Counted from the whole stretch's first letter, positions 7,362 to 53,285 are shown. The stretch: 57,677 nt of DNA, filler included, from Sluysia triapertura (GCA_046118255.1; 4 parts of 4 records of this genome joined end to end with filler, not necessarily neighbours in it), one strand, 5' to 3'. Made by a program: numbers and translations. The notes: generated by a model not told the origin, from the sequence alone.

Positions 7362-9499
7362 TTATTTTAAACTTACGGCTATGAAAATATATAACTTTTT
7401 AGTTTTGTTTACTTTACTTGATCTTTTTTGCCGTAAAATAAAAAATTCTTTAATCTCTCTATTTGACTTTAATTGAAAATAATCACTAACATAGAAAACA
7501 ATGAAATTAACAAGAATTTTATTACAATTAACAAACAATTTAGCATTTATTTTTAAAATTCTTTTCTTAATAATGATTTTCCTAGTATGTTTCGACTTCG
7601 GTTTTTGGGACATTCTAAAAAAACAAAAAAATGTAAATAGGCATCAATGTTGATAATAATATTATAAGTGTTATTAAAATTAGAAATTACTTTAGAGTAG
7701 TTTTTGAAAACCATGTGATAGAGTAATATTGGAGAAGTCATTTTGATAAGACAACAATTGATCAGACTTGAGTCTGTAATTGCAAGTAGTTGTTGAGGAT
7801 CGTGCCGAGGTTTAAAATTGATTAAGGAGAGATACTGACATTTTAGTATTGAAAGATCGCTGCGTTCGAGTTAATGTATTGGAATTATTGTTTTTGTCTG
7901 ACTATTTCTGGATGTCATTTAACCATTTAACCAAAATTTTCATCAAGAAGCATGTAACTTGAGAGTTTTCGTCTTTTCTAGAGCCATCATTCCAACATCT
8001 AGTTAATTCTATATTTAATTTATCTGGGAATAATACTGAATGAATATACTGAGTGATTTCTCAACTTGACAACCAATTTTGGAAGTTACTATTATGTCCT
8101 CATTGACTGAGTACGCTGTTTTAACTAACATTAAACCTGACTTGAAATCCTCATTATGTGAACAAGCTTGAAATAGTTGTGATCTTGGAATATCAACTAC
8201 GCAACATGTGTGGATATTGTCTTTGAATCTCTTAGGACCAGTGGCAAATGGTTCATAGTCGTTAACGTACTTAGAAATCGTCAATGATGACTTAAAAACA
8301 CGAAATTTGATATATCGTCATCTACCTTGACTTGGTAAACAAAAGGATGTTTTTCTGGATTACAGATGTTACTAAATAATTTCTGATTACTTTTTGCATT
8401 CGAAGCAATCATACTATAATTTTGATGCATATCTTTAATTGTCTTCCAGCCAACTTTAGTATCGATATTAATAACATACGAATAGAAATTGTTCATTACA
8501 TTATTAGTGTTATTTATTACTTTATCAAAGTTTATGGTATGAGCGTCGTCAGATTGATGTTCTAAACATATCGTAATAGGAATCTTCTCCGTATTATTGG
8601 GACATCTTATTGATATTACATATAAGTTTGGTAAGAAATGTTCAAAATCATCAAAATACATTGGATTACAAATAAATACTTGTAATTCATGAGTTAATTT
8701 GAATGAATTCTGTGATTCATTGGTAACTTTATTTTAATCAGTTTTATATTACTTTATAGAAACTATGCAATTTATGAACATCAGTAGTAATACACAGCGA
8801 AATTTTTAACACATCAAAAGAAACATGTAAAAGCACTTCAGCTAACTTTTCTTTTATTACTTTACGTGAGGAAAACTTTAAATAGGTTATTTTGTTCAGT
8901 ATATGTTGTAGCCAATTTAATTCTTTTATTAATATATTTTCATTCATTCTAAGTTTTATAGCTGCTGATCGTTTTATTAATTTAGTCTTTTCAAAATTAA
9001 TTCCGATGTGATGTTATTTTAACTCAATTATCATGATTGTACAATAATAATAATCTCATAAATAATTTTTAGCTTCTTTCACCTTTAAATCACTAATAAA
9101 ATTTTCCTTTGTATGATCGATATTTTGTCAGGTTTACTAGCAAATAATGCTGACAAATTCTCTGCATATTGTAATTGGCTACAAACGATATTAATAATTT
9201 TGATGGGGTAGTCATCAAAATACTCATTAATAGAGACAGACTCCACATTTAATGAACTGTCATCAGTCGACAGTTAATAAAGTAATAACAAATGAATTTA
9301 AATGCCTATCGAGTGATGGCAGGTTGATCAATCTTAAAACTTTGTATTTGTTGTAACATAACCACTATCAATAGTGACGATAACTGTATATATGACTTAA
9401 TAATATCACCATTGATAGTGGTAGCTACAAAATTGATAATTTAATAAAAACAGTAGTTCCAATAATATACAATAAAAATTATGATAATAATAATAACAA

Positions 9500-9542
<43 letters not shown>

Positions 9543-9945
9543 GTTGTTGTTGTTGTTGTTGTTATTCCAAAATGCACAAATCCTTTTACATGATAATAAC
9601 ACAAGATTTCTTTTTATTTCTAGACATATTTGAATTTCTTAGTTATAAGCCGTATGTTAAAAGGTTGTGAGTTTATAATGTTTTAAATTAATATTATAAT
9701 GTGATTTTAATATTTTTTGATCTACAAGATTGAATGTTGAGAAATTATGACTTGAGGTGTTTTGGATTAGTTTTAAATGTATTCTTGATAGTTTAAGATG
9801 TAAGTTGTAGTTATGATGTTGTGAGATTATGAGTTAAAATGTTCTACGTGAAATGTAAATGTGCATTAATGATTTTGGATGTAAGTATGGTTTTGATGTA
9901 AGTTTTGAATTTAAAATGTTTTGAGATATGTTTTATTTACTCCCA
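7362..9945 (-). mobile_element. Cassette copy A (right end truncated): fragmented orphan ORF, inverted-repeat module, ATT tract, T/G-rich arm
   Basis: Chain of same-strand ORF pieces 8947-8744, 8661-8281, 8284-8015 and 7741-7362. Sequence 9567-9935 aligns by eye with 19966-20240 (e.g. tacgtgaaatgtaaatgtgcattaatgattttggatg vs tacgtgaattttaaaatatacattgatattctggatg). Confidence 0.65.
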
Positions 9946-49600: not shown

Positions 49601-50299
49601 GTCAAAACGACGATATAAAAAATTTAGTTTTTGTTTCAATAAGTTGTTAATGACGATCCGAAAAATTCTTTTGACATTGTTTGATTTAGAGAATTTGTCA
49701 TTATTGTTATGTAGTCTATAAATATCACTTAATTTTAATTCTAAAATAAAAATCGATATTTATTTTATTTTATTTTCTAACATGAATCAAATTCAATTAG
49801 AAATATTGCTTTTCTATATATATATATTATATTGTATATATTACATGGATACATAAAACCTCATTTATTTTTTAATAACAATTTCATTGTTACATAATTA
49901 TTTTTTTCAATATTTGTATAATTTTACATTTTAATTAATTTAATTTGAAAAATATCATTAATGTGTTTTTGACTAAAAACTAAAAATTTAACTTTTTTGT
50001 CTAATATCGACAGTTCATCATCATCGAATAAAATCAATTTAAACATTAAACAAATCATTTAATAATTTATAACTATCATATTATAGTCTACAAATTTGTT
50101 TTATTTATAGATTAATTATAATGGATAAATAATAATAAACTTTACTCTTTTTGTTTTAAAAAATATTTTATTATAAAGTTTTAATTTTATTAGGTTCCAC
50201 TGAATTATTTATTATAAAATAATAATAAATATTATTATTATAATATTATTATTATTATAATAACTTCACATTAATTCTATTAATTGGTTTATAATTAAT

Positions 50300-53285
50300 T
50301 TACACCAAGCGAGATTTGTTTAAATCTATTTCTGATGATGTTTCGATAATTAATTTAATTTCTTATTCTCAATTCTCTATACGTAAAAATAAATTAAACA
50401 TTTGCAAGTGTTTTTCTTCATGAAAACTTAATTTTAACTTAATCTTAGAAAATAATCCTAATAAGAACGGTTTATATCTAGAAGACGATTCTTTAAACAA
50501 AATTCTTCACTAGTTGCGCTTGGTAACTAGTCGTAGTAAAAATTTGAATAGCAAGTAACATCTTGACTATCCTCTGAGTTCTTTTTATGACACGTTAAAC
50601 TTCATTATCAGAAATAATGAATTTGAACTTCAAAGTGCAGAATATTTCAGAATTTTATATTACAATTCTCTAAATAAAACATCTAACATATTAAATCGGA
50701 ACTTTTAACACCTTAATTTTGAGGTGTTGAATTGAAATTATCTTTATGTTTATTAAATAAATAATTCATTTATTAAAAATTCTTTAAAATTAATCTTATT
50801 TAATTTATGTAACGAATATTCATAAAACACATTTATTAAAATCTTTTTGGTAATTAAAAAAATTAAAGAAATGAAATAATCTTTAAGACATTTATTAGAA
50901 ACAGAAATTAATTGATTTACAACAAAATATTTTATTAAACATGACATATCAAATGACAAATGTTAAAATATCATTGAACGTGTTGAGGGTAAGTCACTAA
51001 TTAAATCTAAATCAAGGTAAAAATAATATAAAAAAGGATAATAATAAAGACTAAAATGTAATACTCCATAAAATAAATACACTACCTTTACGTGGATTGT
51101 TGAGGTATGAATCTTAGTAATGAGTCGGACTGAAATGTTGATTACATAATTACTCGCGTAGATTTTACTACTTCGATATTTGTAGCTTATGTTTATAATT
51201 GTGAACTTTCAATTGTTGATAATTTAACAATGAGATTATTTATTTAACTTTTAACCTGGAAACAGAGAAATTTATCATCAAGATAGTTACTGTCTCTACA
51301 AATCGATCTTTGGTTATAAGATAAGACATATTACGGTGATTATAATTACAACTATTAATGAATTGAGTTTTAAAGTACAAATTTAAATCTTGCATTTGAT
51401 TATAATTATTACAATAATTGATGACATCAGTAAATGAATCTTTGTCATTAGTAGAGCATTTATGCTTTTTATTATAAATAATGATAACTTTAATGATCAA
51501 ATAACATATGATTAATCGATTATTGTTATGCTTGATATATCTAAAGAAATGAAAACAATTAATAACAATAGGTAAATAACAATTAATATTAAAAATGTTA
51601 ACAAAATTTGGATTAATGTCAATAACATCATTTATACCGAATATTATGTTAATGAAGTAAGGAATATGATCCAGAGAGTGCTTGCACAATTCATATTCAG
51701 AGTGTGTAGTTAATTCTGTAGAAAAAGGTAGAGATGTCAAATTCGTTATTAAACTTTCTTAACTTTCTTGATCTAGATCTCTAGCTTGGAAATTCTCCTA
51801 TCTCTAAATCTTCGATAGATTTTTATTAAATGAATGATAGAAAATGATAATCTTAGTATCACTTAGTTCTGGAGTAGAATTTATATTTTCAACTTGATTA
51901 CATTTTTATACTATTTCAAACATTCTGCGGAATAATATCATTTTCATCCACCTTAATAATCAAATAAAATTATATTCGTTCCGACGTCATTTTGAAATTT
52001 GAATTATTCGAGTTCATAACACTGTTAGAAGATGAAGTTGTAGTGGTGATTATAAATGATTTTGATTTTTCGAGGTTAATGACTTATAATTTTCATCTTT
52101 AAAAATGGTTTTAATTGTTGAATTTCTTGTATTCTTGTTTTGGCAGAATGATTTTGTTGTTGAGATGGCATTACATTTAGCATTACATTATATCTCTCGA
52201 TTTAATTTTCATTTACTTATTATTGTTTAGATTTTGATGTAATTAACTCCAATGGACGAAAGCTTAAAAATTTTTATGAGTTTTTATTGTGTCTTAATAA
52301 ATTGGATTGTTTAACTATTGCATACATTGAAATTGCATTGTGGCTGTATAGATTGTAAAATTTTTATTTATTTAAATTTTGAATTGTGATTAACTGCCAA
52401 TGAAAATTTTGCTAGAAAATTTTAATTAAAAAGCTGTCATCCAACGACAGCAACAAATTAACTATTATTGAAAATTCGGCTAATAATTTGTACAAACTAT
52501 TGTTTAGCAACAGGAAGACTGTCAAAGTTTACAGTACTGCAACAAATAACGAAATTAATAATTATAATTATAACAAAATTATAATTATAATTATAATTAT
52601 AATTAACAATTATAACGAAAATAATGATAATAATGATGAGAATAATAATTGATAAAGATAAATAATAATCATAATAATGATGATAATAATTAATAATAAT
52701 AAAAATAAAATAAAAATAAACACAAGCATAAAAATAAATATGAAAACAAATAATTTTTTTTTGATAATCTTTCTTTTTAACATTCTACTAATAATTCATC
52801 ATGATGTTTATATAATTGGTCATTACGTTCCGAGAACAATGAATCCGTTCTAAGAAATTCTGAGGATATTAAAATTATATTTTTCAAATTTATCTTTACC
52901 ACATAAACTTTATATTTCAGAACTTAATTCTTTTAATATTCTTATGTCTTGTGAAAGTTCTCCTTCATTGACTTCGTGAAATTTATTATCTAATTCTTGT
53001 TCAAATAGTTGTTCTGATGCTTGTTCTTCTACTACATGTTTAACTCGCTTTTACTAAAGGGAATTTGAATTCACTCTAATTATTGTTAAAAAGGTACAGA
53101 AAAAATATGAAGGAGTGTAGTGAGAGAGTATTAAAAAGTTAAATTCCATTTAATTTATTACTATATTTGAATTTTAAATACAAATTTAATGATTTTTGAT
53201 TTAATGAATGGTTTAGATGATGTAAAATATGATTTTTAATGTATTGTGAGGTATTAAAATTTTTTGTGACTTTAGTTGGCCACCA
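50300..53285 (-). mobile_element. Cassette copy D: disrupted orphan ORFs, CTGTC-N7-GACAG palindrome, AAT tract, GTTGGCCACCA end
   Basis: ORF pieces 51740-51240 and 50959-50753; GCTGTCatccaacGACAGC at 52433-52451; AAT-rich 52555-52700; terminus aaaatttt..gtg...GTTGGCCACCA whose last 11 nt are identical to copy C. The left boundary is approximate. Confidence 0.6.

Follow-up and report, generated by a model that had tools for sequence, protein, structure and literature searches.

Orphan-gene-bearing repeats with tRNA-Ile-like ends in Sluysia triapertura: candidate Gypsy-mobilised elements without a 5' long terminal repeat

The ends of Gypsy elements follow the pattern TGTNR (PMC2836005), and a primer-binding site (PBS), typically of 8-18 nt, is described after the 5' long terminal repeat (LTR), 8 nt being sufficient in the ta-TRIM elements (PMC4558846). 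In the Burro elements of planarians, accessory domains are reported to act in apoptosis and ubiquitin control (PMC6431247). The sequence analysed here, hereafter called the window, is a stretch of 57,677 nucleotides from Sluysia triapertura (GCA_046118255.1) with four regions, copies A to D, which are 2-3 kb repeats of common orientation and module order, as the initial annotation of this DNA had proposed. All four have an AAT/ATT tract and a G/T-rich arm, and the order on the coding strand is TGGTGGCCAA (TGGCCAA in B), then a leader rich in A and C (0.4-1.1 kb), the AAT/ATT palindrome, hairpins (in A-C) and one or two orphan open reading frames (ORFs) in sense. Roughly an even chance is given here to the reading that A-D are non-autonomous, Gypsy-mobilised retroelements primed by tRNA-Ile, whose copies begin at the primer-binding site instead of at a 5' LTR. 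The copies are decayed and lie as follows.

7362-9959, minus strand: copy A; left end undefined, at about 7340-7420; degenerate right end GCAGACCATCA; read depth increases from 79 to 552 in the bin that starts at 7358
10983-13946, minus strand: copy B; right end at 13941 or 13946, left end at 10983 tentative; a single-copy contig starts at 13912
18252-20466, minus strand: copy C; TGTTA...CCACCA with CATT/CATT flanks (18248-18251 and 20467-20470)
50300-53285, minus strand: copy D; left end undefined; most diverged, without clear hairpin or block

Right ends matching the 3' end of tRNA-Ile

Copies C and D end in TTGGCCACCA, which was seen twice in the window against 0.009 expected, both times at an element end. 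The right-end motif annotated for B, C and D is found in all three as GTTGGCCA, and the longer pattern AAAATTTT...GTTGGCCA had two matches (0 of 100 shuffles), in B and D only, C being one T shorter. The right end of A, previously placed at 9945, aligns better at 9956-9959. The terminal motif is conserved though the mean column identity of the arms is only about 53 %.

13934-13941, plus strand: end of B, GTTGGCCA, tRNA-Ile-like without CCA
20456-20466, plus strand: end of C, GTTGGCCACCA; the coding strand reads TGGTGGCCAAC, which is PBS-like for tRNA-Ile(AAT)
53275-53285, plus strand: end of D, GTTGGCCACCA

According to Table S1 of PMC7962491, the tRNA-Ile(AAT) gene of Schmidtea mediterranea ends in ...CTTGGCCA, and TTGGCCACCA equals the mature 3' end of this tRNA with CCA, with 10 of 10 nt identical in C and D. 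By our rough estimate, which takes about 60 tRNA ends, a CA end would agree with some tRNA end over this length at odds of about 1e-3. Because the right ends match the 3' end of tRNA-Ile, A-D would open on the coding strand with the PBS-like TGGTGGCCAA, which has the typical form of a PBS, yet has no LTR before it. When the elements are read from this start, the ORFs are in sense and downstream of a structured leader. Among the matches listed, no Schmidtea tRNA 3' end corresponded to the end of A or to the TGG of a gag-like element elsewhere in the window.

First-strand cDNA of retroelements finishes with a copy of the PBS, and the junction of one-LTR circles is CA/TG. In the proposed mechanism tRNA-Ile would prime reverse transcription of the element RNA, and the first-strand cDNA would end by copying the primer site, before second strand transfer, giving a 3' ...CCACCA. 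Like the usual ...AACA end, this end would provide a CA-3' that integrase joins to target DNA. Alternatively, a one-LTR circle opened at its CA/TG junction (...AACA/TGGTGGCC) would give the same product, and by either route CA-3' at both ends would result in the permuted unit as seen. Insertion would depend on an integrase of Gypsy type provided in trans, with Burro-like giants as candidate mobilising partners, and the leader, palindrome and hairpins would be packaging and translation signals common to lineages with different genes.

A wider proposal, put forward tentatively since we consider it rather doubtful, is a class of LTR-less, tRNA-primed, integrase-dependent replicons: multipartite or satellite units of 2-3 kb with the tRNA-Ile primer site first, a common structured leader, a different orphan gene in each, and the CCA of the tRNA doubling as the integrase attachment end. 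Should copies systematically start at the primer-binding site, the rule that tRNA-primed, integrase-inserted elements have two bounding LTRs would be broken, integrase would use a copied tRNA CCA as attachment site, and retroelements would have a route by which a single backbone multiplies many unrelated orphan genes.

Element termini and a possible solo LTR origin

TG...CA ends with 4-bp target site duplications (TSDs), initially annotated as the footprint of a Gypsy-type integrase, were found in exact form beside a TG at a plausible left end in C only (CATT, 18252-20466), which on the coding strand finishes ...GTAACA with a 4-bp duplication. Copy B has a candidate with three of the four bases (TTAA/TGAA) if it spans 10983-13946, no TSD was found near the left end of A, and the exact GAAA/TG sites of D (48740, 50872 and 51136) fall within the ORF chain or 1.6 kb past it, none being credible. 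A TSD together with TGTTA was obtained for 38 of 2232 random CA ends over 700 bp and for 122 of 2232 over 2 kb; the TSD of C is good but single evidence. The left end of C, TGTTA, fits the TGTNR of Gypsy elements, unlike the right end, which reads TGGTG in C and D. Terminal inverted repeats are absent from A-D, the ends not being mutual inverted copies, and no second LTR was found in the right flank of any of the four copies (52, 40, 100 and 9 of 100 shuffles reached the score). Left-end motifs were at chance (7 seen, 8 expected).

Several observations weigh against tRNA-primed elements that start at the primer site. The match to tRNA-Ile is only 10 nt long and to the tRNA of another species, which may not be that of the host, and the 11th base differs, being G in B, C and D and C in the tRNA-Ile(AAT) listed for S. 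mediterranea (PMC7962491). Copy B ends in TTGGCCA, a 7-nt match without CCA, and the end of A matches at 7 of 11 positions. The exact TSD is present in one copy of four, and of 2232 random CA ends, 1174 had a TSD beside any TG within 2 kb. No polypurine tract of at least 9 nt was found near the left ends of B or C (A and D have weak purine runs of 9-10 nt at theirs), and A-D leave hardly any space for a 3' LTR. AATAAA or ATTAAA is located on the plus strand before the right end in B (-32), C (-35) and D (-33), not in A, the background at that distance being 296 of 2946 (10 %), and in composition the arms agree with the sense strand of the LTR-like repeat that precedes the gag-like frame in the window; both observations fit plus-strand LTRs. 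The mechanism is also a conjecture because no described element with such a layout was found: a literature search retrieved no PBS-initial, LTR-less cassette, and planarian entries in Grohme 2018 or Repbase (GYPSM1, GLT2) may describe such repeats.

The poly(A) signals in B, C and D favour a different origin, in which A-D are long solo LTRs (2.2-3 kb) of a diverged, perhaps Burro-like, Gypsy element on the plus strand, with a variable U3 containing antisense ORFs and hairpins, a conserved G/T-rich R-U5 with the poly(A) signal, and a tRNA-like end by chance. We regard this origin, already suggested in the initial annotation, as possible though short of probable. It is consistent with TGTTA...CA and the 4-bp TSD in C, and the arms have the same composition as the other LTR-like pair of the window (28.6-29.0 and 24.3-24.7 kb). 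Solo LTRs with 4-bp TSDs are reported as common in a flatworm (PMC4558846), the LTRs of the planarian giants are said to add more than 5 kb in total (PMC6431247), and LTR families with variable 5' halves are described (PMC10787394), which would make the deeper read coverage of the B arm explicable. However, neither end is an inverted copy of the other, the right end departs from TGTNR and equals the 3' end of tRNA-Ile, a match absent from the initial annotation, and this GC-rich match of 10 nt would have to be chance. All four copies would also need antisense ORFs running nearly to the LTR start, and no alignment joins their arms to the other LTR-like pair (z at most 0.7). Were A-D solo LTRs, they would still be unusual gene-bearing LTRs of moderate interest.

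Shared non-coding modules and read depth

The non-coding modules of the copies are as follows.

9469-9566: AAT-then-ATT palindromic tract of A
9569-9959: conserved block and G/T-rich arm of A
12772-12861: AAT/ATT tract of B; read coverage jumps about tenfold to the right of it
12862-13941: arm of B, with the block at about 13040-13105 and an internal duplication, 13487-13600 / 13714-13826
19683-20040: duplicated AAT/ATT tract and block of C, in two units
52546-52750: degenerate AAT tract of D
9257-9422: two hairpins of A, about 9257-9322 and 9361-9422 (fold z -3.5 and -6.7)
12572-12738: two hairpins of B, 12572-12627 and 12678-12738, the second homologous to A 9361-9422
19567-19624: hairpin of C, with further weaker stems at 19400-19545 and near 19650

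Arm similarity was measured by AT-calibrated alignment, each pair being scored against 200 local 3-mer shuffles. The score was reached by none of the 200 shuffles for the pairs A-C, A-D and B-C, by 2 for A-B, by 9 for C-D and by 106, that is at chance, for B-D. Judged from these alignments, the arms appear to be alike above local shuffles in four to five of the six pairs, B-D failing, and on the same strand only (opposite-strand z at most 1.5). In a scan of about 570 window tiles the best matches of the arm ends of A, C and D were the other arms, and that of the B arm lay in the internal duplication of the same arm, with A and C next. Dust-masked BLASTN of the window gave eight high-scoring segment pairs, none of which joined any of A-D to another, so that the homology is at twilight level; the arms, initially aligned by eye, align to this extent. 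The block after the tract, previously noted in A-C, does align in these three copies with 71 % mean column identity, occurring twice in C, and is lacking in D.

A census of hairpins with stems of at least 11 bp and at least 4 G-C pairs over the whole window found four, all of them within A-C (one in A, two in B, one in C), and fold z was -2.4 to -6.7 in the hairpin modules of these copies. Copy D has no census hairpin and fold z of -1.3 and +1.6; the inverted-repeat module had been annotated in all four copies and stands for A-C. The hairpins of A and B align as homologous. Covariation is weak: changes at both positions are seen in 6 of 17 pairs (5 of 500 shuffles), among three sequences from which the structure itself was taken, and a +3 slide scores nearly as high.

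It is very improbable that A-D are unrelated repeats which look alike through AT-rich, skewed DNA with AAT tracts. The failure of masked BLASTN to join the copies, the B-D arms and left-end motifs at chance, and the 31 short AAT/ATT tracts in the window would agree with such an explanation. For A-C, however, it is by now largely refuted: at least 198 of 200 local shuffles score below each of four arm pairs, and this on a single strand, all four hairpins of the census lie in the modules, those of A and B aligning, and the terminal motif is shared. A-D form a real, multicopy, deeply diverged family, the initial annotation of which is partly confirmed at the level of sequence. A-C are well supported and D is a more diverged member, given the arm alignments, the block, the hairpin census with fold z, and the minus-strand coding signal; the membership of D is argued from the A-D arm match, the terminal 11-mer and the module order.

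Read depth was obtained from one public run for the region 5000-16787, i.e. for copies A and B only, the run also containing copy C; depth does not translate into copy number and may be inflated by skewed sequence at 80 % likeness. Single-copy contigs of the run had depths of about 10-21. In A the ORF bins summed to 400-925 and the arm-end bin to 3426, and in B the sums were 1155-1884 for the ORF bins and 16,493-33,274 for those of the arm, the rise occurring at the AAT/ATT tract. A and B are both repeated, and the arm of B, covered about 15-fold deeper than its ORFs, far more so than these. With the earlier suggestion that the cargo may be interchangeable, only this gap in coverage of B is consistent. 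A single-copy contig begins at 13912, indicating that the right flank of B is single-copy, and this start fits expectation if the shared sequence stops at 13941. Repeats of very high coverage (depth 8,000-26,000) are also located at 5786-6571, 14825-15610 and 16397-16787.

The window is eukaryotic scaffold DNA of 25 % GC with three gaps of 100 bases each (16788-16887, 34500-34599 and 46137-46236), which have a TTAATTAATTAA spacer between runs of N. AAT tracts begin both the window and the piece after the first gap, suggesting that assembly breaks may coincide with such tracts. At 5030-5420 (minus strand) there is an arm-like skewed stretch, reversed, which resembles the C arm weakly (3 of 200 shuffles), and a plus-strand frame of 90 aa follows at 5433-5705. 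The region 21838-23772 contains a further minus-strand chain of orphan ORFs (z -4.2, CxxC motifs), followed by a G-skewed stretch ending in TTGGGCCATCA, with three mismatches to the end of C and D. This region, at 21.8-23.8 kb, was considered as a possible fifth, older copy, but the arm similarity is not significant (20-97 of 200 shuffles).

Orphan ORFs, neighbouring features and comparison with known systems

The ORFs of the four copies are listed below.

7556-9013, minus strand: broken orphan ORF chain of A, in pieces of 89, 150, 100 and 105 aa (z -6.7)
11035-11901, minus strand: distal orphan ORF of B, 288 codons stop to stop
11900-12462, minus strand: proximal ORF of B, broken; the stop at about 11900 overlaps an ATG
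18687-19254, minus strand: broken ORF of C, in pieces of 81 and 113 aa; a weaker, decayed coding signal continues leftwards
50372-51900, minus strand: broken orphan ORF chain of D, longest piece 172 aa (51243-51758)

Measured against 100 local shuffles, the minus-strand coding signal had z of -6.7 in A, -7.3 in B, -4.4 to -4.7 in D and -4.2 at 18690-19254 in C, the whole left part of C giving only -2.3; on the plus strand z was -1.9 to +1.7 and significant in no copy. The intronless minus-strand ORF chains of the initial annotation were thus recovered in all four copies. A frame of 288 codons, as in B, would be expected 4e-8 times by chance. At 11895-11905 (minus strand) the stop codon and an ATG of B overlap (AAAATGA), an arrangement known from coupled termination-reinitiation in viral bicistronic RNAs.

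The ORF regions of A-D have no mutual similarity in DNA (z at most 1.7) or in protein, all six pairs being within the range of shuffles, and no motif of a transposable element enzyme was seen, in agreement with the initial annotation. Pfam searches with 19 ORFs and 21 X-read frames found no family in A-D, and the three minus frames of A-D had no Pfam domain; other parts of the window matched RVT_1, HMG, PDEase and DDE_3. PHROGs gave nothing usable for 13 pieces (best E 0.017), Pfam and PHROGs being the two databases scanned with the ORF of C, and no fragment of a known transposable element protein was detected with either. A word-indexed protein search, limited to near lengths, gave 0 of 805 candidates for the 288-aa protein of B and 0 of 9 for the 172-aa piece of D. 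With phmmer, the 150-aa piece of A had one match among 1.84 billion representatives, a low-complexity repeat protein, which was rejected. PDB sequences gave no match for A or B, and the protein of B had no confirmed relative in IMG/VR. In the ESM Atlas the best value was 0.78 for B and 0.84 for A, the latter with Hint/AXH drift, below 0.9 and with recognition 1943, and so a lead only. Single-sequence AlphaFold models had predicted local distance difference test scores of 34-35, and a BFVD fold search on the B model was discarded as meaningless (query TM-scores below 0.2). No homolog, family or reliable fold was obtained for any ORF tested. By analogy with the accessory domains of Burro, our guess is that the ORFs may encode host-modulating accessory proteins. 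The annotated non-autonomous repeated vehicle accordingly stands in its common non-coding part, its unrelated orphan ORFs and the absence of any detected known element protein, and its Gypsy footprint is seen in C alone.

Unlikely, in our judgement, is an origin as integrated segments, or satellites, of an episomal agent with tRNA-primed reverse transcription, such as pararetrovirus-like circles or a multipartite Burro-type virus, with a common regulatory region, different genes and linearisation at the priming gap. The plus strand of C would then correspond to first-strand cDNA made on a circle with priming at that site; non-autonomous plant pararetroviruses are described as sharing non-coding regions and differing in coding content (PMC5491270), and Burro elements have been proposed to be proviruses (PMC6431247). 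On the other side, Pfam and PHROGs gave no match to reverse transcriptase (RT), capsid or movement protein in A-D, IMG/VR had no relative, there is no evidence of circles, and the clean 4-bp TSD implies integrase.

Motif scans for viral or metagenomic relatives returned three viral loci and one metagenome locus, all chance by context, the patterns fitting D and B, respectively, and not C. A non-LTR insertion by target-primed reverse transcription with a (TAA)n tail was set aside, as only B and D have an ATT tract to their left, the flanks are without a repeat by eye and C is tailless. For a retrozyme or ribozyme element, the Rfam scan found no hammerhead or other ribozyme; one chance plant-miRNA match was outside A-D, at E up to 1.

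Other features of the window are the following.

26400-29010, minus strand: decayed frame, presumably gag-like (no Pfam match), preceded by a G/T-rich LTR-like repeat, which is bounded by inverted ends TGGTTCAC...GTGAACCA and not alignable to the arms of A-D
24280-24700, minus strand: recurrence of this LTR-like repeat, alone (z 20.9)
24900-25900, minus strand: broken intronless PDE (PDEase_I), probably a processed pseudogene or captured gene
44610-45823, minus strand: capicua exons with a divergent HMG box, the best named matches being trematode proteins
39829-41032: Tc1/mariner-like element, its inverted ends 75 bp long, with a fragment of DDE_3

Scraps of LINE RT are also present. From this content of the window a flatworm host is likely, and the AT content and AAT microsatellites would suit a triclad.

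Among known systems, MMTV sag and HIV nef are LTR-borne ORFs which lie in sense in the U3 of a paired LTR. The ORFs of A-D likewise overlap a terminal region, but have neither the pairing nor homology. Pararetroviruses are tRNA-primed. The non-autonomous endogenous pararetroviruses of grasses, as described, combine a common non-coding regulatory region with different coding content (PMC5491270), as do A-D, whereas A-D are in an animal host, have TG...CA and a TSD in C, and no pararetroviral protein was detected in them. Ginger1/2 DNA transposons are alike in their TGTNR end, 4-bp TSD and length, and differ by terminal inverted repeats of 40-270 bp and an integrase ORF, which A-D lack (PMC2836005).

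Gypsy solo LTRs, including those of planarian Burro/GYPSM1, are like A-D in having TGTNR at one end and CA at the other, a 4-bp TSD (in C), a poly(A) signal near the end and, in all likelihood, a flatworm host (PMC6431247). In A-D, in contrast, the right end equals the 3' end of tRNA-Ile and does not mirror the left, and the ORFs fill half of the unit. Accessory orphan ORFs are known from Burro, according to the same source (PMC6431247). Burro is a giant with a gag-env-pol polyprotein; the minus frames of A-D have no Pfam domain, the comparison with Burro/GYPSM1 being by description. In mode of action A-D resemble the TRIM/LARD elements (ta-TRIM of cestodes, PMC4558846; Helenus, PMC10886601), described as non-autonomous, with a short PBS for a tRNA 3' end, a 4-bp TSD and mobilisation in trans by Gypsy elements. 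A-D have no LTR pair or polypurine tract, are protein-coding (signal in four of four copies) and are 2-3 kb long; they fall outside TRIM/LARD, but to judge from their sequence probably work as such a passenger of a Gypsy element.

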